A stretch of DNA of 64,000 bases from Candidatus Bathyarchaeota archaeon. GTDB taxonomy: Archaea; Thermoproteota; Bathyarchaeia; TCS64. Position numbers and translations under genes: made by a program. The stretch covers positions 8,575 through 72,574 of the forward strand of contig JAGTRB010000003.1 in assembly GCA_018396865.1 (NCBI GenBank). The letters run 5' to 3'. The notes beneath the pieces are model-generated. The model saw only the letters and a list, made by a program, of their open reading frames with translations, searched no databases and had not been told where the DNA came from. Below, piece by piece: positions 5,954 through 29,950 of this stretch (position 1 is its first letter; each line of letters begins with the position of its first letter).

Positions 5954-6235
5954 CTACCACTATGCATAGCTATAAGCATACTAGCTGATAAGTTTGACTC
6001 AGAGGTCTCTCAGTAATCAAGATCCATCTAGTGAAAGATAATATGATGTTTCAAACTTCAACTGAAGAATTTCTCCCAGACTAATCGATGATAAAAAGGA
6101 AAGGTTTTAGAATGTATCCCGAATACCAGCGTCTCCCTTTTAGCAAGCAGGTTTCATGCGTGATGTCTTGAAGGAAATATCTCTAATTATAAATCTCTGC
6201 AGAGATGATCTCAGGGAGCGTCCTTGCGCGTTGCC

Positions 6236-7249: not shown

Positions 7250-7440
7250 GCTTACGGGAAAACTCTCCTAATTCCAAAATAGTTGACAATGGATGTTATA
7301 ATGGAGAGAATTATTGTAATTTTCAAAAAGGATTTTAAAGGAGACTTTCAATCAATATTTTTAATTTTAGACAGTAGCCTTTCAACAAATGATCTTTATA
7401 ACATATAGAGTTGTAAGTCCATAGAGATTCAGAAGATTTT

Positions 7441-8127: not shown

Positions 8128-8163
8128 AAGTAGTAAGGTTAAGGTAAACTTTTGTCTTATCCT

Positions 8164-9006: not shown

Positions 9007-9205
9007 TTTCTCATCCTCACATAACCATATCTACTTTAAGATTTAAAATGGATCATTCTCGGAATCATAAGCCCTTTAATTGGATCTCGATTAATATATC
9101 CTTCGAATTGTCTGGAGGACTTGATGTTCTGCAACATTTTAAAGTATCTCTGATTTTCTTTTGGATGTGAGCCTCCGTCCCATCTTTCCATCTACTGGTG
9201 GGTTG

Positions 9206-9979
9206 ATGAGGGTAGCCTGCTTCATGTCAGGCTCTGGCACCAATGTTAGGAGGATAATCGAGGCCTCGCTGAGGGAGGGTTCAAGGTATAAGGTGGTTCT
9301 CATATTCACCGATGTGAAGGATGATAGGTTTGACGTGGAGGGGAATAGGATCTGCAGGGCCAGAGAGATCTCCAATGAGTTCGGGATCCCCTACGAGTGC
9401 ATAGACATCCTAGACTTCTACAGGAGCAGGGGATACGATTCCAAGAGGGTCCTGGCCATCCGCCCAGAGTATGACAAGGCAGTCGCCGAGCTGATCGAGC
9501 CGTATAATGTCGACCTCATCGCGCTCGGCGGGTACATGAGCATATTGACAAAACCGATCCTAGAGAGGTATGAGGGGAGGATAGTCAACGTCCACCCAGC
9601 CGACCTATCGGTGACAGAGAATGGCCGCAGGAAGTATACGGGCCTCCACGCTGTTAGGGATGCAATCCTCTCCGGGGAGAGATGGATCTACTCCACAACC
9701 CACATCGTTAGGGAGAAGGTTGACTACGGGGAGATACTTGTAAGGTCAAAGCCTGTAGAGGTAAGGCTCCCGGAGGGGGTTTCCCTGGAGAGGCTTAAGG
9801 TGGACAGGGATTTGCTGGAGGGGGTTGTGAGGGAGAACCAGGAGAGGCTGAAAGAGAGGGGGGACTGGGTGATATATCCTCTGACGCTCCAGCTGATAGC
9901 TGAGGGTAGATTCGCCCTCGATGGGAGGGGAGGAGTATATCTCGATGGTGTACCTCTACCTTATGGGCTGAGGCTCTGA
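9206..9979 (+). CDS. Formyltransferase family protein (PurN-like GAR transformylase)
   Basis: 'RVACFMSGSGTNVRRII' N-terminal loop, 'DLIALGGYMSIL', 'IVNVHPADLS' (formyltransferase NxHPS-type motif). ATG 9206 chosen inside track ORF 9161. Confidence 0.75.
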   Translation: MRVACFMSGSGTNVRRIIEASLREGSRYKVVLIFTDVKDDRFDVEGNRICRAREISNEFGIPYECIDILDFYRSRGYDSKRVLAIRPEYDKAVAELIEPYNVDLIALGGYMSILTKPILERYEGRIVNVHPADLSVTENGRRKYTGLHAVRDAILSGERWIYSTTHIVREKVDYGEILVRSKPVEVRLPEGVSLERLKVDRDLLEGVVRENQERLKERGDWVIYPLTLQLIAEGRFALDGRGGVYLDGVPLPYGLRL

Positions 9980-10429
9980 GATGGATGCGACTACGGCGTT
10001 GTTGAGGCGGATGACGTCCTCCACCCGAACCTCCAGGAGAAGGTCTCTGGATCCCCCTCCACAGAATATCTTCTCAAGCTTGGTCAACTCATCATCCACA
10101 ACCACCTTGACCCTCCCCCTGTAACCCAGGGAGGGGGTTCCACCTGGAGGGTAGCCGCTCACCGCCTCAGCCTCCTCAGGAGATAGAAGCCTCACATTCT
10201 TCACTCCTAGGGCCTCTGATGCCTTTCTGAGATTTACCCTCCTATCCCCGGGGATTATCAGCACAACGTGTTCTCCCCTGTCCGTGGCCGAGAGGAGGTT
10301 CTTTGTTATCCTGTGGAGCTCTATACCGGTGGCGGAGGCCGCATCCGCGGTGTGTACGGTCTCACTTTTGGAGATGAACCTATAATAGACCCCCTTGCTC
10401 TTGAGATACTCCTCTAGAGGGCTCTTCAA
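9956..10429 (-). CDS. YbaK/ProX-type aminoacyl-tRNA deacylase domain protein
   Basis: ~157 aa. 'HRITKNLL', 'LIIPGDRRVNLRKASEALG', 'VSGYPPGGTPSLG', 'FCGGGS', typical of YbaK/EbsC editing domains. Confidence 0.8.
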   Translation of the reverse strand: MKSPLEEYLKSKGVYYRFISKSETVHTADAASATGIELHRITKNLLSATDRGEHVVLIIPGDRRVNLRKASEALGVKNVRLLSPEEAEAVSGYPPGGTPSLGYRGRVKVVVDDELTKLEKIFCGGGSRDLLLEVRVEDVIRLNNAVVASISEPQPIR

Positions 10430-11478
10430 TGGTCATCCCTTAGGATGGGGCAAGTCATGCAGTGGGGTCCCCCTCCACCTAGGCTTAGCTGGCTTCCCGG
10501 GATCCTTATCACATCCAGCCCCCTCTCCTCAAGCTCCGCGATTATCCTCTCGTTCCACTCGTATGAGACGCACTTGCCTCCACCTATCCCAACAATGTTC
10601 GTACCGAACTGCCTCACCTCGGCGTCATCAGCATATATGAGCTCCATCCCCCTCTCCCTCAGGTAGTCCTCCACGAATACCAGCTCCACCCCATCCTCGC
10701 CGTAGAGGTAGGCCGGGTACAACTCAAGGGAGGGCTTATGGATCAGGGCGAGGTCGGGGGATAGGATCATCAGACCCCCGTCGAGGTGGACCCTGAATGA
10801 GGGGAGAGGCACGGCCAGGAGTTCTTTAACAGCCTTTCCAAGCAATGTTCTCTTAACCATCTCCAAGCCGACCTCGTTAGTTCTAGTGCCGAAGCCCATC
10901 ATGAGGGTCTTCCGGTCCAGGTATACGAAGTCTCCCCCCTCAACACTGCCCGGGGGCACCACTCTCAGGGCTATCGGGATGCCCAGCCTCTCCATAGCCT
11001 TCCCAACTAGGAGGGGCTCGGGATACCTCGCCTGATAGGCCATCCTCAGAACGAGAGCACCCAGATAGGTGACGCTGCAGACATCCCTGGTATAGACCAG
11101 GTTTGGGAGCCTCCCTGCGATCTCTCTGTCCCTTCCCTCGAGAAGATCTTCGAGGAGGATGACCTCAACCCCCTCCCCCCTGAGTGCCTCCGTGAAGGCG
11201 TCGTGCTCCATCTGGAACTTCCTCCAGTAGACCACATCCCTGAAGAGGTAGGCGTCCCGGTTGCTCGGTGTTATCCTCCTCAGCTCCTCGGTTGGCCTAT
11301 GCATCAAGACCTTCCTGAGCCGGCCATACTCCGTCTGAGCTCCAAACTCCAATCGACTAAACCCTCCACAAGGTCTATACCTTATCGATCCTCTACATAT
11401 AATCCCATCGCTTATGGGTGAGAGCAAGCATTCAGAGGATATGGCAAATCCACAGTCGGAACTGTTCAATGAACTCAC
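10426..11478 (-). CDS. Arginine deiminase/amidinotransferase superfamily enzyme
   Basis: 'EYGRLRKVLMHRP' entry motif, 'EGGDFVYLD', 'HLDGGL', C-terminal catalytic 'GGGGPHCMTCPILRD'. 4-nt overlap with the downstream gene. N-terminal ~45 aa and exact start uncertain. Confidence 0.75.
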   Translation of the reverse strand: MSSLNSSDCGFAISSECLLSPISDGIICRGSIRYRPCGGFSRLEFGAQTEYGRLRKVLMHRPTEELRRITPSNRDAYLFRDVVYWRKFQMEHDAFTEALRGEGVEVILLEDLLEGRDREIAGRLPNLVYTRDVCSVTYLGALVLRMAYQARYPEPLLVGKAMERLGIPIALRVVPPGSVEGGDFVYLDRKTLMMGFGTRTNEVGLEMVKRTLLGKAVKELLAVPLPSFRVHLDGGLMILSPDLALIHKPSLELYPAYLYGEDGVELVFVEDYLRERGMELIYADDAEVRQFGTNIVGIGGGKCVSYEWNERIIAELEERGLDVIRIPGSQLSLGGGGPHCMTCPILRDDH

Positions 11479-11609
11479 ATCCTATGGTGTAACCAGCTCA
11501 AATCGCAAGTCCTAGGAAGGCCGCAAAGCCTCGCGACGCAGAACTAAGATATCAAATCGAATTTCCAATAAATTTTTATATCAGTTTATTCTCTATAAAA
11601 ATAGTAGAG

Positions 11610-11940
11610 ATGAGATCTCTATCATTGCTATTGTTGAGTTTTCTCTCTCTTTTATCTGTGAGTATAACTGTAGCCGCACTTGTGGAGCCATATGTGTGGG
11701 TATGAGTATCAAACTATTTCAGGTGAGCTATATTTTGGTCAATCCCATCATTATTATAAGGAACCATATACTATCTCAGTAAGGATAGATGCTGTTGAAC
11801 CATCTGGAGCTAAACTTAGGGTAGCGATTTATGTAAATTATGTGGAGAAATGGTTTGGATACCTTGGGTCTGAAGAAAGTTCTCCGACAATCGTTTGCGA
11901 AGATCAAGAAACAATGGTGGATATATGCAATAACACATAA
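11610..11940 (+). pseudogene. Small secreted protein split between two frames (frameshifted pseudogene or +1 recoding)
   Basis: ATG 11610 opens a signal peptide 'MRSLSLLLLSFLSLLSVSITVAALVEPYVWV' that ends at TGA 11703-11705. The +1 frame continues from GAG 11704 as 'EYQTISGELYFGQ...' to the stop at 11940 (track ORF 11680..11940). Confidence 0.4.
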
Positions 11941-12013
11941 GGATATATAGAATACATCGGCCTTATAACTTGGGTTATGCATCGACTATAAAGATCAAAC
12001 CGAAGGTGATTAA

Positions 12014-12913
12014 ATGTTAGGGTTTCTTACCAAAGAGATTTTAATAGATAGATATAAGTTAGACTTATCCTTTAAAAATCATGTCGATAAATTTGTAATA
12101 AATATTTATAAATCATTTATAAGTCTTTTTTCCTTGTCAAAGATAATAAAGCAAACGGAAGAGCTAAGTGAAAAGAGATATCAAATTGAGAAGGGGCATC
12201 TTCGCGTTAAAAATCTCATCTGTCTAATTCTCTTTATTGGGCTGATTTTGGTCTCTGGTCTCTATATAGACCTATATCAGAGGTATAAAGCGCAACATGA
12301 TAACTTTCTAAAACAGGAAGAGGATCTCAGAATTCTGAAAGATAAATTTGATGATTTAACCCCAATCTTGGGCCTCATAAATATGTCATTGGAGAGGCCT
12401 CCAACCCCCTCCGACAGGAGCGTTGTGCTTGTCTCCGGCTACAGTATTGAGTACTGGGTTCGAAGGGTCGATTCGGACTTCACCAGGAGCGGGTTCACCT
12501 TATTCGCCATATTCTATGCCCCCTACGAAAGCTTAACCCTAAGGATGTATCTCTTCTTCTGGCATAGAGATGGCCTGGAAATACCATTAACCATCCAGAG
12601 GGGAAACGCACTCCGCAATGAGTCAGGCATATTTGTTGAGATGGGAAGCAACATAACCACCTGGCAGTCCCCGGTCATCTGGTCGATAAACGCCAGCAGG
12701 GTCGGGATATATGAGGCAACTCTACCCTCAAGGGGATGGTATACTTTGTCCATATCAGGCCCTATTCAAATACAGAGTCGAGATGATCCCCCGCCCTCGA
12801 CATCCCTTCACATCTCATACATTCCATACTTCGATGATCTTCAGATAAATGTAGATTTCAAACTCTTGAGAAATGGTGAGCCCATCATTTTTGCTATAGC
12901 GAGAAGATGGTGA
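12014..12913 (+). CDS. Hypothetical single-pass membrane protein
   Basis: TM 'LICLILFIGLILVSGLYIDLY'. Short coiled-coil 'KQEEDLRILKDKFDDL'. Beta-rich C-terminal ectodomain with N-x-S/T sequons. 5' half very AT-rich, 3' half host-like. Confidence 0.55.
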   Translation: MLGFLTKEILIDRYKLDLSFKNHVDKFVINIYKSFISLFSLSKIIKQTEELSEKRYQIEKGHLRVKNLICLILFIGLILVSGLYIDLYQRYKAQHDNFLKQEEDLRILKDKFDDLTPILGLINMSLERPPTPSDRSVVLVSGYSIEYWVRRVDSDFTRSGFTLFAIFYAPYESLTLRMYLFFWHRDGLEIPLTIQRGNALRNESGIFVEMGSNITTWQSPVIWSINASRVGIYEATLPSRGWYTLSISGPIQIQSRDDPPPSTSLHISYIPYFDDLQINVDFKLLRNGEPIIFAIARRW

Positions 12914-13089
12914 TAAAAATAGGATTTTTTCAAGGCCTTTAAATTTTAATATTTTCCATATCAGGCTTGTGGGTTTAACCTGCAAGATTGGCCCTTCCTG
13001 ATAGGAGAAACTGGGGGAGATTCAATCCGGCTTTAGGCTTCGGATATAGCTTTATACCCTTCATCAGCCGAAATTCAATGTGATCAGGT

Positions 13090-14868
13090 ATGCTCTACTC
13101 CACCCTTGTGGAGGCCTATCAGAGGCTTGAGGCAACCACCAAGAGGCTTGAGATGACTGACATCTTAGCGGACATGCTCAGGAGGGCAGACCTAGATGAG
13201 ATAGATAAGGTCATATACCTGACCCAGGGGAAGATCCACCCTGACTGGACTGGGGAGCCTGAGATAGGAATAGCTGAGAAGATGGCCATCGAGACCATAG
13301 CAAGAGCCTCAGGACTGGATAGAGAAGAGGTGGAGAGGCTCATGGCCGAGACCGGGGATATAGGCCTCGCCGCTGAGAGGGCTATGGAGAGGAGACGCCT
13401 GGGAAGGCTGGGGGGAGGCCAGCTCACGGTGTCGGAGGTTTACAACACCTTCGACCAGATCGCGAAGGAGTCTGGGAAGGGGAGCAGCGAGAGGAAGATC
13501 GATAAGCTCATAGGATTATTCTCCGAGGCCTCCCCCCTGGAGGTTCGATACATAACTAGGACTGTTGTTGGAACCCTCCGCCTGGGGGTCGGGGATATGA
13601 CTATACTCGACGCATTGGCCATCGCGTATACAGACTCCGCAGAGAATAGGGATATTCTCGAGAGGGCATACAACCTCACCAGCGACCTAGGATATGTCGC
13701 CAAGACCCTGGCCCGGGAGGGGCTGGAGGCCTTGGAGAGGGCCAAGCCGGTTCTCGGAAAGCCTATTAGGATGATGCTGGCCCAGCGCCTCTCCACGCCT
13801 CAGGAGATACTGGATAAGCTTGGGGGAGGGGGCTCGGCTGAGTACAAGCTGGATGGGGAGCGCTTCCAGATACACAAGATGGGAGATGAGATCCAGATAT
13901 TCTCAAGGAGATTGGAGAACATCACCTCCATGTATCCAGACGCGGTTGAGATGGCCAAGAGATACATAAGGGCTAAGGAGGCTATCATCGAGGGGGAGGC
14001 TGTGGCCATCGACCCTGAGACAGAGGAGATGAGGCCCTTCCAGGTCTTGATGCAGCGGCGGAGGAAGTACAGGATAGAGGAGATGATGGAGAAGTTCCCA
14101 GTCGCCCTATTCCTCTTCGAGTGCCTATACGTTGACGGCGAAGACTTGACCCTCAAGCCTTACAAGGAGCGCCGCAGGAGGCTCAAGGAGATTGTAGAGG
14201 AGAGCAGTAGGTTCAGACTGGTGAGGTCCATAGAGACATCTGATGCATCGGAGCTTGAGAGGTTCTTCGAGGAGGCCATTTCGGATGGCTGTGAGGGACT
14301 AATAGTCAAGTCCACGAGCGAGGACTCCCTCTATAGGGCAGGGGCGAGGTCTTGGATGTGGGTCAAGTTGAAGAGGAGCTACCAGAGCAGGATGGTGGAG
14401 CCTGTCGATCTAGTGGTCGTGGGGGCCTTCCACGGGCGTGGCAAGAGGGCCGGCAGCTATGGAGCCCTCCTCGCCGCGGTATACGACCAAGAGGAGGATA
14501 TGTTCAGGACTGTCTGTAAGGTTGGCAGCGGCTTCACGGATGAGGACCTTGAGAGGTTGCCGAAGGTTATGGAGGAGTACAAGCGCGCGGAGAAGCATCC
14601 AAGGGTCGACTCCATCATAGAGGCTGATATCTGGTTCACCCCCAGCCAGGTCATAGAGGTTATTGGGGACGAGATCACCCTAAGCCCAGTCCACACCGCC
14701 GCCTTCAACGCGATAAGGGTCAACTCTGGACTGGCTATAAGGTTCCCCAGGTTCACGGGGAGATGGAGGTCTGATAAAGCCCCTGAGGATGCGACCACCG
14801 TGGGGGAGGTCGTCGATATGTATAAATCCCAGCTCAAGACCATAGCTGGAGAGGCTGAGGAGAGGTAG
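13090..14868 (+). CDS. lig: ATP-dependent DNA ligase (Lig1 type)
   Basis: Adenylation motif I 'EYKLDGERFQIH', 'IIEGEAVA', 'LFLFECLYVDGEDL', 'EGLIVK', 'WVKLK'. Archaeal/eukaryal three-domain length of 592 aa. Confidence 0.95.
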   Translation: MLYSTLVEAYQRLEATTKRLEMTDILADMLRRADLDEIDKVIYLTQGKIHPDWTGEPEIGIAEKMAIETIARASGLDREEVERLMAETGDIGLAAERAMERRRLGRLGGGQLTVSEVYNTFDQIAKESGKGSSERKIDKLIGLFSEASPLEVRYITRTVVGTLRLGVGDMTILDALAIAYTDSAENRDILERAYNLTSDLGYVAKTLAREGLEALERAKPVLGKPIRMMLAQRLSTPQEILDKLGGGGSAEYKLDGERFQIHKMGDEIQIFSRRLENITSMYPDAVEMAKRYIRAKEAIIEGEAVAIDPETEEMRPFQVLMQRRRKYRIEEMMEKFPVALFLFECLYVDGEDLTLKPYKERRRRLKEIVEESSRFRLVRSIETSDASELERFFEEAISDGCEGLIVKSTSEDSLYRAGARSWMWVKLKRSYQSRMVEPVDLVVVGAFHGRGKRAGSYGALLAAVYDQEEDMFRTVCKVGSGFTDEDLERLPKVMEEYKRAEKHPRVDSIIEADIWFTPSQVIEVIGDEITLSPVHTAAFNAIRVNSGLAIRFPRFTGRWRSDKAPEDATTVGEVVDMYKSQLKTIAGEAEER

Positions 14869-20127: not shown

Positions 20128-20203
20128 GGGCTGGTAGATCAGTGGTATGATCGCCGCCTTGGCAGGGCGGAAGTCGCGGGTTCAAATCCCGCCCAGTCCA
20201 CCA
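20128..20203 (+). tRNA. tRNA-Ala (anticodon GGC), CCA encoded
   Basis: Hand-folded cloverleaf: acceptor GGGCTGG/CCAGTCC with the G3:U70 alanine identity pair, D-arm GATC/GATC, anticodon stem CCGCC/GGCGG with loop TTGGCAG, T-arm GCGGG-TTCAAAT-CCCGC, discriminator A, CCA. Confidence 0.9.
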
Positions 20204-20495: not shown

Positions 20496-20912
20496 TTAAT
20501 TAATCACTTCCCTCTTCTTTATTCCCATTACACCTATCAGCGATATTATAGCTGCAGAAATAATGTATATTGATGTTTTGAGATTTGGGCTTGAGTTAAT
20601 AGAGGAGAACGTGTAGACTCCAAATCCCATAACAATCCCTGTGGCGAACCTGACCTTGTTGTTGCTCTCTCTCAAGGCCCAGGATTGGGTCAGCCAGTCG
20701 TATGATAGGGGTATGACCGAGAGGAGGCTAAGGATCACCTTAAGATCTTCCCTTATCAGGGATAAGAGATTAACGCCGATTATGCTGGTTAGGGCTGTTA
20801 GGATTAGGAGGCTGGTCAGGTATCCTGAGCATCTGGAGCAGAACCTGAATTCTCTTCCCAGGATCCTCAATGAGAACCAGTGCCTATGGGCTATAAGCCT
20901 CCATAGCTCCAT
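20496..20912 (-). CDS. DUF2085-like polytopic membrane protein
   Basis: 'FCSRCSGYLTSLLIL' Cys motif followed by 3-4 TM helices, 138 aa. Confidence 0.65.
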   Translation of the reverse strand: MELWRLIAHRHWFSLRILGREFRFCSRCSGYLTSLLILTALTSIIGVNLLSLIREDLKVILSLLSVIPLSYDWLTQSWALRESNNKVRFATGIVMGFGVYTFSSINSSPNLKTSIYIISAAIISLIGVMGIKKREVIN

Positions 20913-20919
20913 CAGCCCT

Positions 20920-21483
20920 CTACTCCCTTATCAGCTTCTCGCCGCAGTAGGGGCAGAGGTTGAACTCCTTCAGAACCGGTTTACCACAGGATGGGCATCT
21001 GTCCGATATCGGTGGGGCGGGGATCCTCAATGGCTGGGAAGCCTTGAACTTGGCTATCCTGCTTTTAAGAGAGGAGTCGTATGTTGCCTTAACAACTGTT
21101 CCACCCCCTTCAACCTCTGTTAGTTCAAAGTATATCGGGCCAGAGCTGTCATCCATCCTAAAAAGCCTTGGAGGGACTGCCTCCCTGACAACGAATCTGG
21201 CCTCGACTTTACCTCCTCCAAAGGCCCTCCTGAACCTGGATGAGAAGGATCCTCCCCCCTCCCTCATCCTCTCCTCAGCCTCCCTCCTCCATTCTGAGGT
21301 CACGTTCTCGATCGCCTTAAAGGTCTCCTCAATATTCTGGACGGTATACCAAGTCTCGGTCACACTCTCACGCTGAGGAGCGGCTCCTCCCCTGGGCTGG
21401 GCCATCATCATGGCGCAGCATAACAGGGGAAGGATGAGCCACAAGATGTCCGTAGCGCCCTGATCCACGAACGGTGGCAACAT
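20920..21483 (-). CDS. Membrane-anchored protein with C-terminal zinc ribbon
   Basis: N-terminal TM 'ILWLILPLLCCAMMMA'. C-terminal 'CPSCGKPVLKEFNLCPYCGEKL' (CxxC-x10-CxxC). Confidence 0.6.
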   Translation of the reverse strand: MLPPFVDQGATDILWLILPLLCCAMMMAQPRGGAAPQRESVTETWYTVQNIEETFKAIENVTSEWRREAEERMREGGGSFSSRFRRAFGGGKVEARFVVREAVPPRLFRMDDSSGPIYFELTEVEGGGTVVKATYDSSLKSRIAKFKASQPLRIPAPPISDRCPSCGKPVLKEFNLCPYCGEKLIRE

Positions 21484-21788
21484 ATCAATTCAATGAATGT
21501 TATATCCACCAGATTTATTTAAAACAATGCCTAAAACCTACCTTAGTGGGTTTATAAACCCAAACTCTATTCTCCGTTAGAATTATCCTTCCATATGAAG
21601 AACTCATTATATCCCCCGAAACCAACCATTAATGTCGAGAGTGGGGCTTGTAATCTGGGTCTCCAATCGGGCCCATGTTGCTCACCCCGTGAAATAGGCT
21701 GCGGAGGCAACCTTAGAGGAGATGGATTGTTAAGTTTTAATTCGCAATCCTTTTAAATATGATGAATCCCTTATACTAAAGGAGACAA

Positions 21789-22769
21789 ATGAAAACAAAA
21801 ATAACTTTAATATGCTTCATTATGATATCAATATCAATTATGACAATTCCATCTTATTGTGCAGAGGAGGGGGGATGGATCTTATGGTATAAGGTGGAAG
21901 ACTTAAAGACGAAAAAGCTGATACTAGAAAAAGATCTTATTACAGGAAATGAAAAAATCTATGAATCTATATTTAGTGGTGCAGAATATAACGTGACTAT
22001 TTTTTTCAATATAGCGGTAACTGTACCCCGATCTGTTTTGAAAATTAATACATCATTAGAACGTGCAAGCTTGTTAGATAGGTTTTGGGAGCTTCACACT
22101 AAAGATTACCCCGTGGTTAATTATAATCCAAGTGAAAAAGTTGTAAGGTTTAATCAGGTTAAAGGAAACCTTACAATATCTATGTACGGAAGAATTCCTC
22201 AAAATATAACAGAAAAAACATTTAATGGATATGTTTTTAATAAGGCGGTTGATTATATTGTTTTAGAGTTAAGGGGTCCAAATGATGAAATGTTAGATAA
22301 TATCTCTTTCAAAGTGATAGATTCAAAGATTAATGAATATCAAAATTTGTTAAGGTCAAAAGAAAATGATTTAAAAAACATTAAAAATCAGGGAGTAATT
22401 AGTTCATATGTTAAACTATATGAAAAAATGTTAAACCAAGCAAAGGTTGAGGCTGAGATGGGATTTGTAGATAACGCCATAAAAATATTGAATTTATTGT
22501 CTATAGAAGGGGCTCCAAAAGAACCGACCCCCTCAATTTTAGAAATATTATTTTACCCTACTGTTTTGATATTGGTGGGTGTGATAGCATTTACTGGATT
22601 TATGTTTCAAAGAAGTAGAGGTAAATTGAATTATACCTTAATGGTGGTTGAAGAACAAGTTAAAGAGTTAGAGGGTCTTGGAGTTAGATTATCTAAAATA
22701 GATAAGAATATTTCGTCAAATCTAGAAGGTATTAAAGATAGGCTGAAAAGGTTGGTTGGGGTGTCCTGA
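21789..22769 (+). CDS. Island ORF A: type-I membrane protein (signal peptide, ~220-aa ectodomain, TM, cytoplasmic coiled-coil tail)
   Basis: Signal 'MKTKITLICFIMISISIMTIPSYCA'. Five sequons (NVT, NTS, NLT, NIT, NIS). TM 'ILFYPTVLILVGVIAFTGFMF' then 'QRSRGK'. Tail 'EEQVKELEGLGVRLSKIDKNISSNLEGIKDRLKRL'. AGGAG 6 nt before the ATG. 14-nt overlap with ORF B. Confidence 0.7.
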   Translation: MKTKITLICFIMISISIMTIPSYCAEEGGWILWYKVEDLKTKKLILEKDLITGNEKIYESIFSGAEYNVTIFFNIAVTVPRSVLKINTSLERASLLDRFWELHTKDYPVVNYNPSEKVVRFNQVKGNLTISMYGRIPQNITEKTFNGYVFNKAVDYIVLELRGPNDEMLDNISFKVIDSKINEYQNLLRSKENDLKNIKNQGVISSYVKLYEKMLNQAKVEAEMGFVDNAIKILNLLSIEGAPKEPTPSILEILFYPTVLILVGVIAFTGFMFQRSRGKLNYTLMVVEEQVKELEGLGVRLSKIDKNISSNLEGIKDRLKRLVGVS

Positions 22770-25425
22770 TTTGTCAAAACAGCCCTCTAACATAATTCAC
22801 CTAATAGGTTTAGGTTCAGCGGGGACGAATATAGTTGAAGCCTTTATTTCAAGTAAGAAAACCATGAACTTATTAGAAAATGAAAATACTCGCTTATCAC
22901 TTTTAGCTATAGATGTTGCAGATCCAGATATCAGAAGTTTACAGGAAACATATAGTAAAATATTAAAAGAGATGAAAGATAAAGGTATACCTAAAGAAAG
23001 AATTTCTCTCATAGCTCAATCCATAAAATTTCCAACTGCTGAAGCTATGTTTGATTTTATAAATGAAAAATATAAAGATCATTTAATTAGCGAGGGTGTA
23101 AATCTCAAGGAATATTCTTCATGGTTACCTTCAACAATGGCTATACCACCTCTGGCGGGAGGTGCCGGTAGGAGAAGAGCTCTGGCTAAGGCGATATACG
23201 CCTTAAACTACTACCAACTTGGAATCATAAGAAACTTCTTGAACTCCTTCAAGGAACAAGCCCTCTCATCGATAATGACCCCAATAGTCATAATCATATA
23301 TGGGATAGGTGGAGGGACCGGAAGCGGGATAGCCTTCGAGTTCGCTAGGCACCTCAGGAAGGTTCTAGGTTCAGGGGTTCCGATCATAGGGATATCCATC
23401 CTTCCATGTAGGGGGGATGACCCACCCGCTAAGGGCTGCTCGGCCTACTCCTCTCTAACCGAACTCTCACTGCTGTTGAATAAGGATTACAACGATTATA
23501 TATGCAAGAATTATGGTGAATTCTATAGAAACCCCTTCAACGCATTTATATGCATTCCACTAACTCCAGCATATTCAAATACAGGAAACATAATAGTAGC
23601 TAGAAAAGATATTGATGAAATGATTATAGATATAATATATATGTTGATGGATTTTGATTTATCTGATCTATTAGGAGGAATTGGAACTGAAGTAGGGTTA
23701 ACAGAAAATTTTATTCATACTATAAGTATGACAAAGGTTGTTTATCCAGTAAATGAATATATTGATGCTTTTAAAATATACTTAGATAGAATTCAAACTT
23801 TATACGAATTCAGAAAAGAGAAACTTGAAATAATAAACAATATTAATGAAATATTGATGCTAAGATATGATGATATAAAGGAAATCCTAAAAATGTATTT
23901 GATAAGAACAGGAACTTATGTGGAAGAACAATTTGATGAAAAAATTAAAACTATCATTAGGAGTTCCTCTAGATTTAATGAGGATTATTGGTTATATATT
24001 AAAGGGGTTGAAGATCAGATAAAAAACTGGATTAGTGAATTGTCAAAATTTTTGACAACAATAAAATTGACAGCTAAAACTGGAACAATAGAAGATGCCA
24101 TTGTAAATTTAACACTTCACAAAGAGGAATCAAGAGAAATGGAAAATCTCGAAGATCTATTAACAAATATCACAAAAACATACATTGAATTTCCAGAAAA
24201 AAAGGGCATAATTTTTGAAAGGTTAAAACAGTTAATCCCAAGTTCACAAATACTCACAATCAGACAGAAAAGGATTTTAGACGATTTAATGAACATTACA
24301 GAAATTGTGGATAAAACGCTACAGATCTTTAAATTATACAATGAATCAAGGTTTTTAACAGAAACATTAATTAGATATTATTCAGCAATTCCTGAAACTG
24401 AAACAATTTCAAGGGAATTGAAAGAAATTAGAACAGAACTTACATGCTTATACTATCTTGTCCAATTAATTTTAAAAACTCCATTAGATGAGGCTAAAAT
24501 AATCGATGAAAATTTGACTTACCTTCAAGGAATAATTAATAAGATCAGGGATGAAATTAACATAATAAATGAAGAAATATTAAGAATGGAGGAATCAAAG
24601 AAGAGAAAAGAATTCGACCGAATAAAGTTTGAACAAGAAATTGGCAGGTTATTTGGAATAGGTAGAAGAAAATATATTAAAGAAAAACTGGCTAAGTTAG
24701 AAATTGATATAAAAAGAATCGAGGAAGAAAAATCTTATTTAGAGAAAAATGCCAAAGAGTATAATGATTTACTAAGATCTTATAACAACTTGATGAGAAA
24801 AATTGAGGTCACTTCCGATTACAGAAGAAAGTTGAACAAGATCATAGAGTTACATAGAGCTTATCAAGATAAGATATCCGATATTCTTAAACCAAAAAAA
24901 TATTTTGAAAAGACTACTGAACTAACTGAAACGGAACAAGTAAAAATTGTATATAAAATTCTAGCAGAACAAGAGGAAGAATTATCAAGAGAAGGTATTT
25001 TGAAAGAAATTCTTGACATTGATCATTTTAAAGATTATATGAAAAGTGTGATAAGGATTTTCAGGACTCCAAGTTTTATGGGGCTAAATACATCATTTAA
25101 ATCAGATTACATATGGGTTACAGTTCAGACCCCTCAGGGTCTTTGGAATGAAGATTTAACTCAAGAGATTTACACCGTTCTTGCAGGATATATTGTGGGA
25201 GAAGTATCAAGAAATGTTACAATTAGGATAATAGATTCAAGGGATCCATGGACGATAAGGATTCTTGTTGTAGGTGGAAGAGGAAAACCTATGAATTTAG
25301 AAACATATGATGAAATGCAGGCGCTTTACATTAAATCAACAGAATTCGAAAAACAACTTTCTAGATCCTTTTTAATTGAACATGGAATCAACATTGAGAA
25401 CATTATCGATAAAATTAATGATTAG
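22756..25425 (+). CDS. Island ORF B: tubulin/FtsZ-superfamily GTPase with a very long coiled-coil region (889 aa)
   Basis: T1-like 'LIGLGSAGTNIVEAF' (nt 22807-22830 for GLGSAGTN). T3-like 'LAGGAGRRRALAKA'. Exact tubulin signature 'GGGTGSG' (nt 23308-23328). T7-like 'MDFDLSD'. K/E/I/L heptad-rich aa ~340-760. C-terminal 'YIWVTVQTPQGL...TIRILVVGGRG'. Start is TTG at 22756 or 22771. Confidence 0.8.
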   Translation: MGCPDLSKQPSNIIHLIGLGSAGTNIVEAFISSKKTMNLLENENTRLSLLAIDVADPDIRSLQETYSKILKEMKDKGIPKERISLIAQSIKFPTAEAMFDFINEKYKDHLISEGVNLKEYSSWLPSTMAIPPLAGGAGRRRALAKAIYALNYYQLGIIRNFLNSFKEQALSSIMTPIVIIIYGIGGGTGSGIAFEFARHLRKVLGSGVPIIGISILPCRGDDPPAKGCSAYSSLTELSLLLNKDYNDYICKNYGEFYRNPFNAFICIPLTPAYSNTGNIIVARKDIDEMIIDIIYMLMDFDLSDLLGGIGTEVGLTENFIHTISMTKVVYPVNEYIDAFKIYLDRIQTLYEFRKEKLEIINNINEILMLRYDDIKEILKMYLIRTGTYVEEQFDEKIKTIIRSSSRFNEDYWLYIKGVEDQIKNWISELSKFLTTIKLTAKTGTIEDAIVNLTLHKEESREMENLEDLLTNITKTYIEFPEKKGIIFERLKQLIPSSQILTIRQKRILDDLMNITEIVDKTLQIFKLYNESRFLTETLIRYYSAIPETETISRELKEIRTELTCLYYLVQLILKTPLDEAKIIDENLTYLQGIINKIRDEINIINEEILRMEESKKRKEFDRIKFEQEIGRLFGIGRRKYIKEKLAKLEIDIKRIEEEKSYLEKNAKEYNDLLRSYNNLMRKIEVTSDYRRKLNKIIELHRAYQDKISDILKPKKYFEKTTELTETEQVKIVYKILAEQEEELSREGILKEILDIDHFKDYMKSVIRIFRTPSFMGLNTSFKSDYIWVTVQTPQGLWNEDLTQEIYTVLAGYIVGEVSRNVTIRIIDSRDPWTIRILVVGGRGKPMNLETYDEMQALYIKSTEFEKQLSRSFLIEHGINIENIIDKIND

Positions 25426-25459
25426 AAAATTATAAGAATATTAATTCATAATAATTTCA

Positions 25460-26590
25460 CTACAAATCATGGTTTACTAAACTCAAAATATCTTTTAATT
25501 TTACTTCATCTATTATACCTTTTTTGGTTAAATACTCAATTGTTTCTCGGGCTTTCTCTTCTAATGAATTCAAAATTTTTTCTTCATTAAAACCTCCAAC
25601 TATAATCATAATATCTATTCTATCATTTACTTCGTTTATAAAGATGGGATCACTAATGTATATTACTTTTGGACTTGATTTTTCTCTTATCCATCTTATA
25701 AAAGCTGATTCGAGTTTTTCTTTGGTGATCTCTCCTCTTAATTTAACTGGAATCCTAGCTAATACATAAAAAATATATGACTCTTTTAAATCAAAATTTA
25801 AGAGCATTCTATATAACATTGAATTAAATATATTTTCGAGTGAATCATAAATTTTCAGGCTGCAACCAGTAGAAATCAATATCGTATATAATTTGATATC
25901 GAAGTATTTTGAAAATCTCATAAAATCATTCACAAAACCCTCTTTAGATAACATCAATTCTAAAATTTCATTCAGGATCATGCCCCCTTTAATTAAATTA
26001 CCTTTCCTGTCAACTCCAACATAGTCTTCCAGAAGGTCTCTGTTTATTATAAAGATTGGATAACATCCTTTATTTATGCACATGGCTATTGATGATATAG
26101 AATTAAAATGGGCATCGGAAGGTTGTTCTGGAGATGGTATCAAAGCTATAGGGATCGAATCTATTCTCCATTCCATTAACTTTGACGTTATATATGGAAA
26201 AAGACCACCTCCAACTCCATCCCATGTAGATGAAACTATTAATCCAGATTTTACCTTATGTAAAAGATTATCTTTTAAATCTAAATCTAATGACCTCCTA
26301 TTTTCAATATATTCATAAATATTAAAACAAAAATGTTCATCGAGATTATGGTCAACATCTATAAAACTAAAAAAATCTATTTTCTTAATGAAATTTTCCA
26401 TGAATAATTCACTTTTCTTACCAATAAAGAGAAACAAAATATCGTTAGATAATTTAAACAATGAATTTTTTAACAAAATATTGTTTGTATATCCACCTAA
26501 ACTTATGGATCCCCTTTCCGGTATCCTGAGTTTTAATAACCTAATATGCCCCAAAACACTTTCAAGTACATCAAATGACTCTATATTCAT
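25460..26590 (-). CDS. Island ORF C: divergent FtsZ-like protein with degenerate GTP-binding loops (376 aa)
   Basis: Collinear by eye with FtsZ: 'ILFLFIGKKSELFMENF' (T1 position, glycines lost), 'IVSSTWDGVGGGLFPYITSKL' (T4; nt 26201-26221 for DGVGGGL), 'IALIPSPEQPSD', 'IFIINRDLLEDY', 'NDFMRF', 'YVLARIPVKLRGEITKEKLE', 'IDIMIIVGGF'. Confidence 0.65.
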   Translation of the reverse strand: MNIESFDVLESVLGHIRLLKLRIPERGSISLGGYTNNILLKNSLFKLSNDILFLFIGKKSELFMENFIKKIDFFSFIDVDHNLDEHFCFNIYEYIENRRSLDLDLKDNLLHKVKSGLIVSSTWDGVGGGLFPYITSKLMEWRIDSIPIALIPSPEQPSDAHFNSISSIAMCINKGCYPIFIINRDLLEDYVGVDRKGNLIKGGMILNEILELMLSKEGFVNDFMRFSKYFDIKLYTILISTGCSLKIYDSLENIFNSMLYRMLLNFDLKESYIFYVLARIPVKLRGEITKEKLESAFIRWIREKSSPKVIYISDPIFINEVNDRIDIMIIVGGFNEEKILNSLEEKARETIEYLTKKGIIDEVKLKDILSLVNHDL

Positions 26591-26637
26591 CAGGTCACGA
26601 AGTAAACTTTTAAAGGCCTTTCAAATAAATATTTTGA
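26591..26637. promoter_or_regulatory. 47-bp divergent intergenic region with back-to-back TATA-like elements around palindrome AAAGGCCTTT
   Basis: Perfect 10-bp palindrome at 26612-26621 flanked by TTTTAAA / TTTCAAA(TAAATATTTT). Each A/T box lies within roughly 10-30 nt of the ATG it faces (ORF C 26590, ORF D 26638). Confidence 0.4.
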
Positions 26638-28992
26638 ATGAAGGCCATGCCCCAATTGCATGATTCAGCTAAATTCAACCAAAGACTCATTAAAATTTTT
26701 ACTTTTTCAGTTTCTTTTGCCGCTCTTAGTATGGGTCTTTCCTTCATTCCACTTCTCCCTCAACCTATACCATTGATAATATCTTTCATCATTTCATTTT
26801 TAATACTGAATAATCGCAGAGAAGGAATGATCATAGGAAGCTTTCTAATTGGATTAGGATTAATATATCATATGAGTCGAATAAACCTCATATTGATACT
26901 GGGAAGCACTGAAACTAAACTACTTTTTTTAAGTATTTTAATCGTTTTTTTTCTATTCACTCCAATAATTGCAAAAATATATGAAGATATTATAGCTATT
27001 TCTGTTGGAATCATAGCTGCCTCAATGCTTTTTTTCAATCAAACCTACTTTTTCGCAATACCCCTTATAATAGTTTTCGCAGGGATATACAAAAAACAAA
27101 GGATATGGCTAACATTATCATATTATGCAGTTATATCGATTCCCATACAAATAATGCAATACATAAAGTACATATACAATGAAGAATATCACACTCCGCC
27201 CCCTTTATATGTTCCATTATTAGAAATCTTTAATGATATACAGGAATCAATGAAAAAAATAAGCATAAATGAAATATCAAGAGTTTTAGAGATTATTGCT
27301 GGGCAGTTTAAATCGAGAACAGATTCATCTCTAAGATTTATGATAAATGCCATATCTGAATATTTAAACTCATTTCCAGGAGTTATTTTCTTTTTGATAA
27401 TAATGTTCAGCCTTGTTTCCATAACCGCCTACATAATCTCCAATTCATTAAAAATTATCGAAAGCATGGAGATAACAAAAAAATATTCAAAATTCCTAGA
27501 AATATTTTTCTCAGTTATCACTGTAACGATAATTACAACACTCTTCTATATATTTCTTATAATCCTTCAAGAACCATTATCCTACATGGCGGAAATAAAT
27601 ATTTTCAACATGATGATGGGCATTATTGGAACATTTATAACTACGATCCCAATTTCCTTCATAAATTATGAGATGAAAATCAGTACGATAATAGAAAAGC
27701 GATCAGAAATAATAAGAAGAAAATCTGAAAAATTTATAGAAAATTTGAAAGACTTCAATGAATTAATGAGAAAAATTAGTAACAATATTCCGATTAAGAT
27801 TGACTCACTCATAAGTGAGGCTGCTTCGATTAAGGAAAAACTTGTAGATATATTGGATAATATAGAATATGGAGTTTATGGGTTAAATGAATTGGAAAGA
27901 AAAATTTTAGCAATAGATACTGAAATAAATGATGAAGTATTAAATTTATACAAAAAATTAAATACTTTGTTGAATGAATATTATAGGAACGAGAGTTATG
28001 AGTTTAACACATTGCTAGATAATTATAAAAAAATAGGAATAGAAATAAAAGATGAGATATTTATAAATTATAAAGATGATGAAGAAATAGAAGCAAAAAT
28101 AGAGAAAATAAGGATGATTCTAAATAAAGAATGGAAATTGACTGAAAAAATTACAGGAACATATGAAAAAATATATAACATACTAAGAAATTATTATGAT
28201 CCTTCGCTTCCAGAAGAAAATTCTACTTTGACTATTGCAAAACAAAAGATTCAAGAAAGACAGTTTCCATGCGTTATCCTAGAGGCAATATATATTTCGA
28301 TTAACAATCTAGAAACGCAATACTCAAAGGAAATAACTAATACCTTAAATAGGTTAATTGAACTAATGGGTTCAACAAAAAAAATTTATACAAATAATGA
28401 AAAATCAAAGATTTTATGCAACGAAATTAATGATAGATTAATTGCAATTGAAAAAAAGGTGAATAATTTAAAAGAGATATTAGAGGAAAATGTTTTCAAG
28501 ATAACTAAGATAATAGAAGTAAATGAAATTGTAAATGATTATATAAAAGTTTACAAAGAGATATTTCAAATTATATATGATGAAATAACCCTAAAAGAAA
28601 ATCACATAGAAAAATTAGCTATCAATGAAGGAATAAAATTTATTAAAAACGATCAAGTAAAAGATAAAATAATTTATATTTTAGAAATTCTAAGAAAGCT
28701 CCCTATTTATAATATCAATGAAACTATTACTAATTTAGAAAAGTTTTTAATGCAGGTTGATGAATGTTTCGAAATTATATTTAATTATAATGAAACGGAG
28801 GAAATCCTACTGAACTATGAGATTTCAGAATCAATAATGAAAAAATTATTAAAAGAAAAGGGATTAATAAAAATAAATGAACTTCCATTCAAAGAAGAAA
28901 TTGCAAGAAAATATATGGAGATTTACAGTGAGAAGCATAAAAAAGATGTGTTATATGATAGTGAGAAATTGATAATTTATCGAAGGGATTAA
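26638..28992 (+). CDS. Island ORF D: ~10-TM membrane protein with ~440-aa cytoplasmic coiled-coil/helical tail (784 aa)
   Basis: Hydrophobic helices through aa ~340 (e.g. 'FTFSVSFAALSMGLSFIPLL', 'VIFFLIIMFSLVSITAYII', 'IFNMMMGIIGTFITTIPISFI'), then K/E/I/N-rich heptad-like sequence to the end. Confidence 0.75.
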   Translation: MKAMPQLHDSAKFNQRLIKIFTFSVSFAALSMGLSFIPLLPQPIPLIISFIISFLILNNRREGMIIGSFLIGLGLIYHMSRINLILILGSTETKLLFLSILIVFFLFTPIIAKIYEDIIAISVGIIAASMLFFNQTYFFAIPLIIVFAGIYKKQRIWLTLSYYAVISIPIQIMQYIKYIYNEEYHTPPPLYVPLLEIFNDIQESMKKISINEISRVLEIIAGQFKSRTDSSLRFMINAISEYLNSFPGVIFFLIIMFSLVSITAYIISNSLKIIESMEITKKYSKFLEIFFSVITVTIITTLFYIFLIILQEPLSYMAEINIFNMMMGIIGTFITTIPISFINYEMKISTIIEKRSEIIRRKSEKFIENLKDFNELMRKISNNIPIKIDSLISEAASIKEKLVDILDNIEYGVYGLNELERKILAIDTEINDEVLNLYKKLNTLLNEYYRNESYEFNTLLDNYKKIGIEIKDEIFINYKDDEEIEAKIEKIRMILNKEWKLTEKITGTYEKIYNILRNYYDPSLPEENSTLTIAKQKIQERQFPCVILEAIYISINNLETQYSKEITNTLNRLIELMGSTKKIYTNNEKSKILCNEINDRLIAIEKKVNNLKEILEENVFKITKIIEVNEIVNDYIKVYKEIFQIIYDEITLKENHIEKLAINEGIKFIKNDQVKDKIIYILEILRKLPIYNINETITNLEKFLMQVDECFEIIFNYNETEEILLNYEISESIMKKLLKEKGLIKINELPFKEEIARKYMEIYSEKHKKDVLYDSEKLIIYRRD

Positions 28993-28993
28993 A

Positions 28994-29908
28994 ATGCATT
29001 CATATCAGGGATATAAACAAGGTATAGGCGATATCAAATTAAATATATTTGATGATAGAATCGAAATATACCATGAAAAAGGGTATATAAAAAAGAGTAA
29101 AAAAATTTTAAAGGTAATTTATTTCTCAGAAATCGATAAAATTGAAACTAATAATAATGAGCTAATTATTTATTTTACTAACAATGAAATATATAATATA
29201 ATTTTTCAACAAAGAGAATCATTGAATAATATTTATGAAGTTTTGATAGATATCTTCTCGAAAGTAAACGATAATGCAAACCAAAAAATTTGTGGAACTA
29301 TGTTAGCCGATATAACTAAAAAATCTATTTATTTAATAGATCTTTTGTTCGACGTCATTTTAAACTTAAATGGTAAAATTGTCTGGAAAAATTTAGAAAA
29401 AAATTTAAAAGATATAAAGGAAGTTTATCAAGGAATTAAATCAACTTATAACAAATTTGTGGATCTCGATTTTAAGGAGATGGAGCGAAATATAGTTGAT
29501 CGTAATCCTGAAAAGATCCCTATGAATGTGTTTAATTTTATAAAAATGATATTGTCTTTTTATAGGAGTTTGGATAAAATTGATGATAAAGATTTAATTA
29601 TTTTGAAATCTAAATTTTTAGATTTTTTAATGATTGTTGAATCTGCTGTCTTATTAAATGATATAATCCTTGGTATAATTATAGGAGATGGACATGTCAA
29701 TGAAGAAATTGAGGTTTTTATCAATCTGACAAATTCACTATCTAAAAAAATTAATATTACTATAGAAAGAATTTATATAATAAATTTATTCGAGGAACTA
29801 AAATTTAAAGCAAAAGATTATCAAATAATAAATAAAATTAGGGATTTCTTGAAGGATCTAGCCATGAGATATTTATCTGAGGAGGGATCAAGGGTCTCCC
29901 TTCTATGA
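28994..29908 (+). CDS. Island ORF E: soluble 304-aa protein (beta-rich N-domain, helical C-domain)
   Basis: ATG 1 nt after the ORF D stop (TAA-A-ATG). N-terminal 'DRIEIYHEKGYIKKSKKILKVIYFSEIDKIETNNNELIIYFTNNEIYNIIF' looks like a small PH/GRAM-like beta sandwich (weak). The rest is helical. Confidence 0.6.
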   Translation: MHSYQGYKQGIGDIKLNIFDDRIEIYHEKGYIKKSKKILKVIYFSEIDKIETNNNELIIYFTNNEIYNIIFQQRESLNNIYEVLIDIFSKVNDNANQKICGTMLADITKKSIYLIDLLFDVILNLNGKIVWKNLEKNLKDIKEVYQGIKSTYNKFVDLDFKEMERNIVDRNPEKIPMNVFNFIKMILSFYRSLDKIDDKDLIILKSKFLDFLMIVESAVLLNDIILGIIIGDGHVNEEIEVFINLTNSLSKKINITIERIYIINLFEELKFKAKDYQIINKIRDFLKDLAMRYLSEEGSRVSLL

Positions 29909-29950
29909 GCTTGGCTTGATTTTTAAGCTTCAGCCCCTCCTTTAATTTGG

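Follow-up and report, generated by a model that had tools for sequence, protein, structure and literature searches.

A conserved gene cluster of Bathyarchaeia encodes an FtsZl1-type GTPase, a predicted pseudo-tubulin, and two putative membrane partners

RESULTS

Five genes in an AT-rich segment of a bathyarchaeal chromosome

The DNA analyzed here, referred to as the window, is a 64,000-nucleotide (nt) stretch of a Candidatus Bathyarchaeota contig (JAGTRB010000003.1, positions 8,575 to 72,574), and it contains a chromosomal compositional segment, or island, of about 8.4 kb with five closely packed genes, which we call A to E. Genes A to D, with E as an accessory, appear to constitute a vertically inherited chromosomal module with two tubulin-superfamily proteins at its core: B, a putative GTPase of the FtsZl1/Tubulin_2 family, and C, a predicted tubulin-fold protein with degenerate nucleotide loops. 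Gene A occupies positions 21789 to 22769 on the plus strand (326 amino acids [aa]); B, positions 22771 to 25425 on the plus strand (884 aa, or 889 aa if translation begins at TTG 22756); C, positions 25460 to 26590 on the minus strand (376 aa); D, positions 26638 to 28992 on the plus strand (784 aa); and E, positions 28994 to 29908 on the plus strand (304 aa). The gaps measure 34 bp between B and C, 47 bp between C and D, and 1 nt between the D stop codon and the start of E. These coordinates agree with the layout given in a first-pass annotation of the same DNA, which had also described a 14-nt overlap of A and B; the overlap exists only with the B start at TTG 22756 and is lost with the start used in the database gene calls, TTG 22771, two bases past the A stop codon. 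Residue numbers of B are counted here from the start at 22756.

The G+C content, measured in 500-nt windows, is 0.22 to 0.36 between positions 21500 and 29999, with a sole exception at 23000 to 23499 (0.44), where the Gly/Ala/Arg-rich GTPase core of B is encoded. Flank values run from 0.45 to 0.60 with a mean of 0.52, lower than the 58 to 67% that had first been estimated. The G+C content at third codon positions (GC3) is 0.22 to 0.27 in genes A to E and 0.57 to 0.73 in neighboring flank genes, and fourfold-degenerate sites have a G+C content of 0.245 in the island and 0.65 in the flanks; the sharp drop in G+C and the accompanying shift in codon usage, both noticed at the first reading, are thus apparent by all three measures.

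B is a predicted FtsZl1/Tubulin_2 GTPase with a long coiled coil

B matched the Pfam family Tubulin_2 (PF13809) with 50.7 bits (gathering threshold, 27) over residues 16 to 338, covering profile positions 2 to 345 of 356, and the Pfam family Tubulin with 40.4 bits. Homologues of B carry precomputed PF13809 assignments, and NCBI names the orthologues "tubulin-like domain-containing protein." Against the models for canonical FtsZ, B scored 14.5 bits with TIGR00065, for which the cutoff is 295, and gave no match to PF12327. Tubulin_2 has been equated with the FtsZ-like families of Makarova and Koonin by Santana-Molina et al. (PMC9871819), and the FtsZl1 proteins have been described as an FtsZ-like domain at the N terminus, followed by an extended coiled coil and a mostly α-helical C-terminal globular domain (PMC2875224).

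The first two of these parts are recognized in B. Its N-terminal tubulin/FtsZ-type nucleotide-binding domain (approximately residues 12 to 330) includes a T1 loop, GLGSAGTN (residues 18 to 25, nt 22807 to 22830), and a T4 loop, GIGGGTGSG (residues 183 to 191, nt 23302 to 23328), the latter holding the GGGTGSG signature. A helical coiled-coil region (approximately residues 332 to 711, nt 23749 to 24888) and a C-terminal α/β domain (approximately residues 755 to 889) follow. Both loops are invariant among 19 orthologues (alignment A2), as are a T3-like motif, AGGAGRRRA, a T5-like motif, and a PCxGDDPPAKG block. In the AlphaFold2 (AF2) model, residues 332 to 711 form long helices with a predicted local distance difference test score (pLDDT) of 80 to 90, and heptad periodicity agrees. 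We conclude, from its sequence, that B is a member of the known FtsZl1/Tubulin_2 family, in line with the tubulin-signature GTPase with a long coiled coil recognized in the first-pass annotation.

The C-terminal domain of B was modeled as mixed α/β at a pLDDT below 55, and with that low confidence it would differ from the mostly α-helical domain of FtsZl1. In an hhalign comparison, the segment YIWVTVQTP...RILVVGGRG (nt 24898 to 25422, approximately residues 715 to 889) was placed on strands S7 to S10 of the tubulin C-domain of the C' proteins introduced below (FSFLILRVP..., DALLLLGG), with an E value of 0.13, which is not significant. One possibility is that a coiled-coil insertion has split a tubulin fold in B, whose C-terminal domain would be the displaced tubulin C-domain.

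C is a predicted tubulin-fold protein with degenerate nucleotide loops

No match to C was found in Pfam or NCBIfam, PF12327 and the FtsZ equivalog TIGR00065 included. Functional GTP-binding loops (T1, GGGxxG; T4, GGGTGSG) are absent from the C family, in which both are degenerate: T4 reads STWDGVGGG in the window (residues 121 to 129, nt 26204 to 26230) and TWDG(V/F)(G/S)S across the family, and T1 reads GGYTNN (residues 32 to 37) and G(E/G)Y(P/T), respectively. The best AF2 model of C (pLDDT, 80; predicted template modeling score, 0.81) has the full two-domain tubulin/FtsZ fold. Foldseek placed CetZ (3zid) first among PDB entries (E value, 3e-14; template modeling [TM] score, 0.65 to 0.70), followed by TubZ, BtubA, FtsZ, and tubulin, matched over the whole two-domain fold with E values from 1e-14 to 1e-11; there were 674 matches with E values below 1e-3, and all 50 of those listed were to tubulin/FtsZ-family structures. 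The C family profile also reached CetZ, at an E value of 0.0025, with STWDGxGS/TWDGVGS placed on the GGTGS signature.

An exhaustive search of 1.84 billion representative sequences with the C profile returned only 136 clusters. A second tier among the matches (E values from 1e-36 to 1e-5) consists of proteins of 410 to 460 aa, which we call C'. When ten of them were compared with Pfam Tubulin, three scored clearly above the gathering score and one scored at it. In most, T4 remains G-rich, reading GGGTG or something close to it, and T1 has the form GxGxxG; an N-terminal zinc ribbon is frequent, and their profile found CetZ, FtsZ, and tubulin in the PDB with a best E value of 8e-15. The modeled fold, the profile match to CetZ, and these loop-bearing relatives place C in the tubulin/FtsZ superfamily, where it appears to be a nucleotide-loop-degenerate offshoot of a noncanonical group. 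The fold and the degenerate loops had been anticipated at the first reading; C, described there as a second FtsZ-like paralogue, is not a close paralogue of B.

Many C orthologues (P0148, P0150, and P0153, for instance) carry an acidic, Pro-rich low-complexity extension of 250 to 290 aa that the C protein of the window lacks. It is N-terminal in most orthologues and C-terminal in P0153, has no Pfam match, and contains repeated basic-aromatic patches (KKKGIFGSFGKKKK, RFGFGKGGKK, and KKKGFFSFFSGLRKK). The extension has the look of a disordered linker whose motifs would bind a membrane or a partner; it recalls the linker-plus-anchor logic of the FtsZ tail and would fit tethering to one or the other.

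A and D are predicted membrane proteins with cytoplasmic coiled-coil parts

A is predicted to be a single-pass membrane protein. Between an N-terminal signal or anchor (residues 7 to 25) and a transmembrane helix assigned by hydropathy (residues 250 to 268, nt 22536 to 22592) lies an outside domain of some 220 aa; the helix is followed by a cytoplasmic tail of 57 residues (residues 270 to 326, nt 22596 to 22766). This tail is the best-conserved part of the protein (alignment A4; consensus, MVVEDQIKELEGLTLRASKIDR...IKDRLKxLVG), and heptad periodicity extends over residues 262 to 326. D is a predicted polytopic membrane protein with about 9 to 10 hydrophobic helices (residues 18 to 343, nt 26689 to 27666), of which 6 are strong segments at a strict hydropathy threshold and the others were recognized by eye; beyond them, about 440 aa (residues 345 to 784) make up a helical coiled-coil region on the cytoplasmic side, with heptad periodicity over residues 386 to 727. 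Hydropathy and heptad periodicity accordingly agree with the membrane topology and coiled-coil cytoplasmic parts first proposed for both proteins.

Profiles of A, D, and E found nothing significant among PDB sequences, D giving weak coiled-coil matches only, and none of the three matched Pfam or NCBIfam. E has no recognizable features, and its fold class was not assigned by any library searched (Pfam and PDB). It is the fastest-evolving member of the set, with 44 to 70% identity within the clade of the window (defined below). The ratio of nonsynonymous to synonymous substitution rates (dN/dS) is 0.1 to 0.3 for A, C, D, and E and about 0.06 for B (the latter measured against locus L009), indicating purifying selection.

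Genes A to D are conserved as a unit across Bathyarchaeia

More than 750 homologues of B were found, and those with a named source come from Bathyarchaeia; the best 120 are full length and 58 to 100% identical to B. One genome was scanned for each GTDB species, and a B relative was present in at least 238 species-level genomes, almost all of which are from Bathyarchaeia. We compared 88 loci with the window proteins by tblastn. B was adjoined by A in 85, by C in 86, and by D in 81, and the misses fall mostly at contig ends; across counts, A lies next to B in 85 to 87 of 88 to 91 loci and D is present in 81 to 84. Gene order and orientation are constant, A-B-C(reverse)-D, and the flanking genes vary by lineage: L002 has operons for ribosomal proteins there, and L001 has Drg and a tRNA synthetase. 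Identity to the window proteins is 55 to 68% for B, well above that of A (29 to 46%), C (27 to 39%), and D (25 to 37%).

E behaves differently from the other four. A profile search found it adjoining the cluster in 24 loci, downstream of D in 15 (the basal clades and the clade of the window), upstream of A in 7 from other clades, and unclassified in 2; iteration converged at these 24 loci without extending the set. The coherent five-gene set proposed in the first-pass annotation is therefore reduced by one: the functional unit appears to be the four genes A to D, and E a putative accessory that moves or is absent.

A rearranged version, D'-C'-A'-B', occurs in four further contigs (L090, L091, L092, and L093). 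In L090 the four genes share one strand (positions 6058 to 13523). Their products, D' of 784 aa, C' of 458 aa with a zinc ribbon and Tubulin, A' of 355 aa, and B' of 857 aa, were detected by the window-family profiles with E values of 1e-31, 9e-38, 1.5e-37, and 6e-222. The L090 contig is Geothermarchaeales-like: its DnaK protein falls into one cluster, at 90% identity or more, with a protein from Candidatus Geothermarchaeales. Its G+C content is 51%, that of L091, from the same sample, is 46%, and the other two contigs have 27 to 28%. In L091 the D'-like part lies inside a stop-free frame of 2,033 codons, and A' is apparently frameshifted. A metagenome scan for C' relatives yielded two loci. 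The association of the four genes has thus outlasted rearrangement and deep divergence, which is strong comparative evidence for a functional unit, and because C' keeps its GTP loops in the Geothermarchaeales-like version, their loss in Bathyarchaeia would be derived.

Low G+C content is peculiar to one clade

The low G+C content is no feature of the module; it is a peculiarity of the clade that comprises the window, L009, L007, and L005/L010, with L006 and L008 looking alike. In this window clade alone the G+C content of the cluster lies 0.19 to 0.24 below that of the flanks. In the other loci, about 66, cluster and flanks agree to within about 0.05, L033 differing by 0.064. Amino acid constraint was rejected as the cause, since the same proteins are encoded at 57 to 60% G+C in other lineages; the cluster has host composition even in genomes of 57 to 64% G+C, and the proteins hence do not force a low value. 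Transcription-coupled deamination was unsupported; fourfold-degenerate sites hold A at 0.41 and T at 0.35, and with no excess of T there is no strand asymmetry of the kind that deamination produces.

The first-pass annotation had taken the composition as a sign of horizontal acquisition. In its most specific form, this explanation would have the ancestor of the window clade acquire the cluster, or replace its own, the donor being a bathyarchaeon outside the sample with about 28% G+C; the island would be an unameliorated relic. We regard such an origin as a serious possibility that nonetheless falls short of being the favored one. The confinement of the 0.19 to 0.24 gap to this clade speaks for it, and so does a neighbor-joining tree of B, in which the clade forms a separate long branch near L002 (38% G+C). 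Low-G+C Bathyarchaeia that carry the cluster do exist (L047, L049, and L057, at about 0.30 to 0.32); the same tree, however, places the window clade outside the sampled group of 30 to 32% G+C rather than nested in it. Moreover, the identity of B to distant lineages (58 to 60%) is about that of a flanking housekeeping open reading frame (ORF) (55 to 61%).

Divergence within the clade bears on the same question. The synonymous substitution rate against L009 is 0.29 to 0.53 in the island and 0.23 to 0.74 in the flanks, and the proportion of synonymous differences from L007 and L005 is 0.5 to 0.7 in island and flanks alike, near saturation; yet in every one of the four lineages GC3 is 0.22 to 0.39 in the island and 0.56 to 0.77 in the flanks. 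For the branches of the window and L009, synonymous changes at third positions were polarized by parsimony with L007 as the outgroup. In the island, 134 changes from AT to GC (931 ancestral AT sites) and 83 from GC to AT (283 GC sites) put the equilibrium GC3 at about 0.33; in the flanks, 29 (87 sites) and 54 (321 sites) put it at about 0.66. The slight excess of AT-to-GC changes in the island, 134 versus 83, speaks for such a relic, but the equilibrium they define is far below that of the flanks, and as parsimony would inflate AT-to-GC changes in AT-rich DNA, the true island value would be lower still and the contrast is conservative. Acquisition alone therefore fails to explain the persistence of the AT richness, for which a region-specific substitution regime is needed, with or without an ancient replacement. 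Coinheritance with the flanks and host composition in the other sampled lineages leave the original argument from composition doubtful.

The island lies in the core chromosome and shares its neighbors with related assemblies

The surrounding 64 kb is archaeal core chromosome, with genes for DNA ligase, Fae/Hps, aEF-2, MCM, Hel308, and a RACo-type activase. To the left of the island, a DUF2085 protein (positions 20496 to 20912, minus strand) and a 187-aa protein with a C-terminal zinc ribbon (positions 20920 to 21483, minus strand) are the neighbors in every window-clade member; the gene at the right junction encodes a gamma-glutamyltranspeptidase. A tRNA-Ala gene (positions 20128 to 20203) lies 1.3 kb upstream of the island, away from its border. 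Rfam found nothing inside the island and two tRNAs outside it. One of these, at 45592 to 45704 on the minus strand, was missed by ARAGORN; a length of 113 nt points to an archaeal tRNA that contains an intron.

The sharp change in composition is the sole support for a misassembled junction with a contaminant, which the first-pass annotation had raised. The left junction, formed with the DUF2085 and 187-aa zinc ribbon genes, recurs in NCBI, Logan, JGI (two), and ENA/GTDB assemblies, and the right junction is found again in both of the contigs that extend to it, L007 and L009. This recurrence excludes misassembly for practical purposes.

The same drop in G+C, with its foreign codon usage, could also mark the cargo of a degraded mobile element in which B and C would form a DNA segregation system like those of TubZ or PhuZ, another of the early suggestions. 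Two observations might be counted in its favor: the top fold matches of C include TubZ, and bacterial Tubulin_2 genes sit on Rhodococcus megaplasmids. The plasmid matches of B, though, are to such bacterial genes and cover its N-terminal domain only (30% of B at about 30% identity), and no phage or defense-family matches were found for the island proteins; PADLOC models gave none for A to E at E values of 0.01 or less, and a PHROGs scan gave one meaningless coiled-coil match and otherwise nothing. Pfam detected no integrase, helix-turn-helix, or adaptor domain among A to E. The island contains no tandem arrays, iterons, or centromere-like arrays, and no direct or inverted repeats of 10 nt or more join its borders, where a check for att-like sequences turned up one 9-mer, at chance level; the lack of mobile-element signals reported in the first-pass annotation is thus upheld. 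A and D, half of the core set, are predicted membrane proteins; the island is coinherited with its flanks; and the cluster is chromosomal in every locus examined and has host composition in the other loci compared, about 66. A segregation system of a mobile element is accordingly very improbable.

In L089, the Rhodococcus aetherivorans plasmid pN1, two tandem genes for tubulin-like domain-containing proteins lie at 5100 to 8680 with a 105-aa ORF between them, and the N-domain of one of the proteins is about 30% identical to that of B. Paired tubulin-like genes therefore occur in bacteria too.

Putative promoters precede A and lie between C and D

A 57-nt block upstream of A (positions 21732 to 21788, plus strand) contains a TATA-like element, CCTTTTAAATA, together with a ribosome-binding site, AAGGAG. 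The window, L009, L007, and L005 have this block in almost the same form although their synonymous sites are near saturation, and from archaeal promoter architecture we assign it as the putative promoter and 5' leader of A. The divergent intergenic region of C and D (positions 26591 to 26637, 47 bp) contains TATA-like elements TTTTAAAGG and AAATAAATATTTT and probably comprises back-to-back promoters with very short leaders. A second block, TTATTTAAAACAATGCC at 21514 to 21531, is nearly invariant in four diverged lineages and is found upstream of the divergent 187-aa zinc ribbon gene, at a distance of about 30 nt. Between this block and the one upstream of A, no conservation was found in the spacer. 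A noncoding RNA in the G+C-richer middle of the 305-bp upstream spacer was rejected because that sequence is not conserved.

DISCUSSION

We think it probable, with some reserve, that the module encodes a membrane-anchored, tubulin-superfamily GTPase assembly that is inherited chromosomally and whose AT richness is clade specific. Starting from the family and fold assignments, the topology predictions, the co-occurrence of the genes, and the purifying selection on them, we infer how the proteins may touch one another, polymerize, and act in the cell. B, with its intact GTP loops, would probably oligomerize through its long coiled coil and would probably work with C through tubulin-type longitudinal contacts. 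Having lost the glycine-rich nucleotide loops, C would serve as a noncatalytic partner, a cap or a regulator, loosely like the nonexchangeable subunit of the tubulin heterodimer. D, through its coiled-coil domain, and A, through its conserved cytoplasmic tail, might anchor the assembly at the cytoplasmic membrane, and the outside domain of A could couple it to the envelope. Driven by GTP turnover in B, the assembly would then form, come apart, or change conformation and thereby shape the membrane or envelope; the likely output would be GTP-dependent membrane or envelope remodeling, as in cell shape, a division-related step, or vesicle formation.

Several points weigh against this interpretation. 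The full-length AF2 model of B is poor (pLDDT, 56.6), the underlying alignment being shallow, at about 60% identity, and Foldseek matches of this model to TubZ, CetZ, and tubulin are local and weak; we did not use them as evidence for the fold, so the structural comparison suggested in the first-pass annotation gave a tubulin/FtsZ fold for C and left B with a poor model. For C itself, one model in five was confident (pLDDT of 80 versus 52 to 57 for the rest). Profile-profile comparison of B with C was not significant and aligned just the S4-T4-H4-S5 element. Of the causes tried for the low G+C content, deamination found no support and amino acid constraint was rejected. Bathyarchaeia have been reported to possess CdvABC and FtsZ homologues already (PMC9723716), and a part in division need therefore not be invoked. 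Finally, FtsZl1 proteins have been reported to have no recognizable T6-H7 elements or tubulin C-terminal domain (PMC2875224), and they may therefore not form canonical protofilaments.

The last point keeps alive the main competing interpretation, a membrane complex that forms no filaments and serves transport, signaling, or tethering. B would then be a coiled-coil GTPase switch or tether that dimerizes through its heads as large GTPases do, C a pseudoenzyme regulator, and A and D the working membrane parts. The long, stalk-like helical region of B and the large, polytopic D would suit such a complex, as would the predicted inability of C to bind GTP in the usual way, and transport or signaling roles were proposed by a reviewer of the original FtsZl1 paper (PMC2875224). 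Set against it, all characterized members of the tubulin/FtsZ superfamily form filaments, which is established knowledge and the argument of the authors of that paper; the 55 to 68% identity of B across the sampled Bathyarchaeia is typical of polymer-forming cytoskeletal proteins; and D has no transporter family signature in Pfam, NCBIfam, or the PDB. We consider a nonfilament complex rather unlikely.

FtsZl1 operons are predicted to function in membrane remodeling, and in them, as here, the FtsZ-like gene is encoded together with membrane proteins. The partners differ. Those of FtsZl1 vary by lineage and include a vWA protein, a P-loop GTPase, an OmpA-like protein, and a Ser/Thr kinase (PMC2875224). 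None of these was found in A, C, D, or E at Pfam or NCBIfam E values of 1 or less, or among the neighbors of the cluster in L001 to L008; the island has instead a tubulin-fold protein with apparently dead nucleotide loops, the single-pass A, the polytopic coiled-coil D, and E.

CetZ proteins are archaeal tubulin-like cell-shape proteins. They provide the best structural matches of C (3zid, 4b46, and 4b45; TM scores, 0.63 to 0.70), sharing its two-domain tubulin/FtsZ fold, and the best PDB sequence matches of both the C and C' profiles, which is a best-hit relation. C differs from CetZ in its low identity (13 to 15%), its loss of the glycine loops T1 and T4 (TWDGVGS replacing GGGTGSG), its lack of a match to Pfam Tubulin, and its constant association with an FtsZl1 gene and two genes for predicted membrane proteins. 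Side by side, B and C also resemble α/β-tubulin and BtubA/BtubB, conserved pairs of divergent superfamily members, and by their loop sequences they may resemble heterodimeric tubulins in having one competent site, the other member standing outside nucleotide turnover. The pair departs from those tubulins in that B is of FtsZl1 type and C nearer CetZ, with no close paralogy between them, in the coiled coil of some 380 residues in B, and in the retention of GTP loops by the Geothermarchaeales-like C'.

An uncharacterized FtsZ-like clade in Culexarchaeia, Thermoplasmata, Bathyarchaeia, and Geothermarchaeales was described by Kohtz et al. in 2022 (PMC9723716). The C' proteins, at 410 to 460 aa and many with an N-terminal zinc ribbon, likewise stand outside the named tubulin/FtsZ families, and their occurrence in a Geothermarchaeales-like contig would fit the distribution of that clade as described; the likeness is one of descriptions, and the main text, as searched here, gives neither partner genes nor a degenerate branch in Bathyarchaeia. 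The TubZ/TubR/tubC and PhuZ systems share the superfamily fold with the proteins studied here, and differ in that the cluster is chromosomal, has membrane protein partners, and lacks a DNA-binding adaptor and centromere repeats. In a literature search that was thin on subscription journals, we found no paper describing this gene set or its spread in Bathyarchaeia. What seems to be new is the predicted pseudo-tubulin with two specific membrane partners and the breadth of the set across Bathyarchaeia.

A bolder combination of these ideas would make B and C an obligate hetero-oligomeric polymer, tethered by A and D, that serves as the main shape or division cytoskeleton of Bathyarchaeia, together with a region-specific regime near 29% G+C. 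In such a polymer, an FtsZl1 GTPase whose activation domain is missing or split off might be completed in trans by a nucleotide-free protein with a full tubulin fold, and a selective or mutational regime undescribed for archaeal chromosomal genes would keep the locus of one high-G+C clade at about 29% G+C. We give this combination little credence as a whole.

An 8.4-kb segment that holds a separate equilibrium (GC3 of about 0.33 versus about 0.66) through near-saturating divergence is unusual, and the island of the window clade is a warning that compositional islands need not mean recent horizontal transfer. Bathyarchaeia are among the most abundant sediment archaea, and to our knowledge their cell biology is essentially unknown. 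FtsZl1/Tubulin_2 is the most divergent branch of the tubulin/FtsZ superfamily and is uncharacterized in the literature that we searched. The four-gene module, present in at least 238 species-level genomes, supplies a concrete set of proteins, namely, an FtsZl1 GTPase, a predicted pseudo-tubulin, and two putative membrane anchors, and the Geothermarchaeales-like C' with its GTP loops offers a natural comparison. With this defined partner set and that comparison, the polymerization of FtsZl1 proteins and their recruitment to membranes become directly testable.

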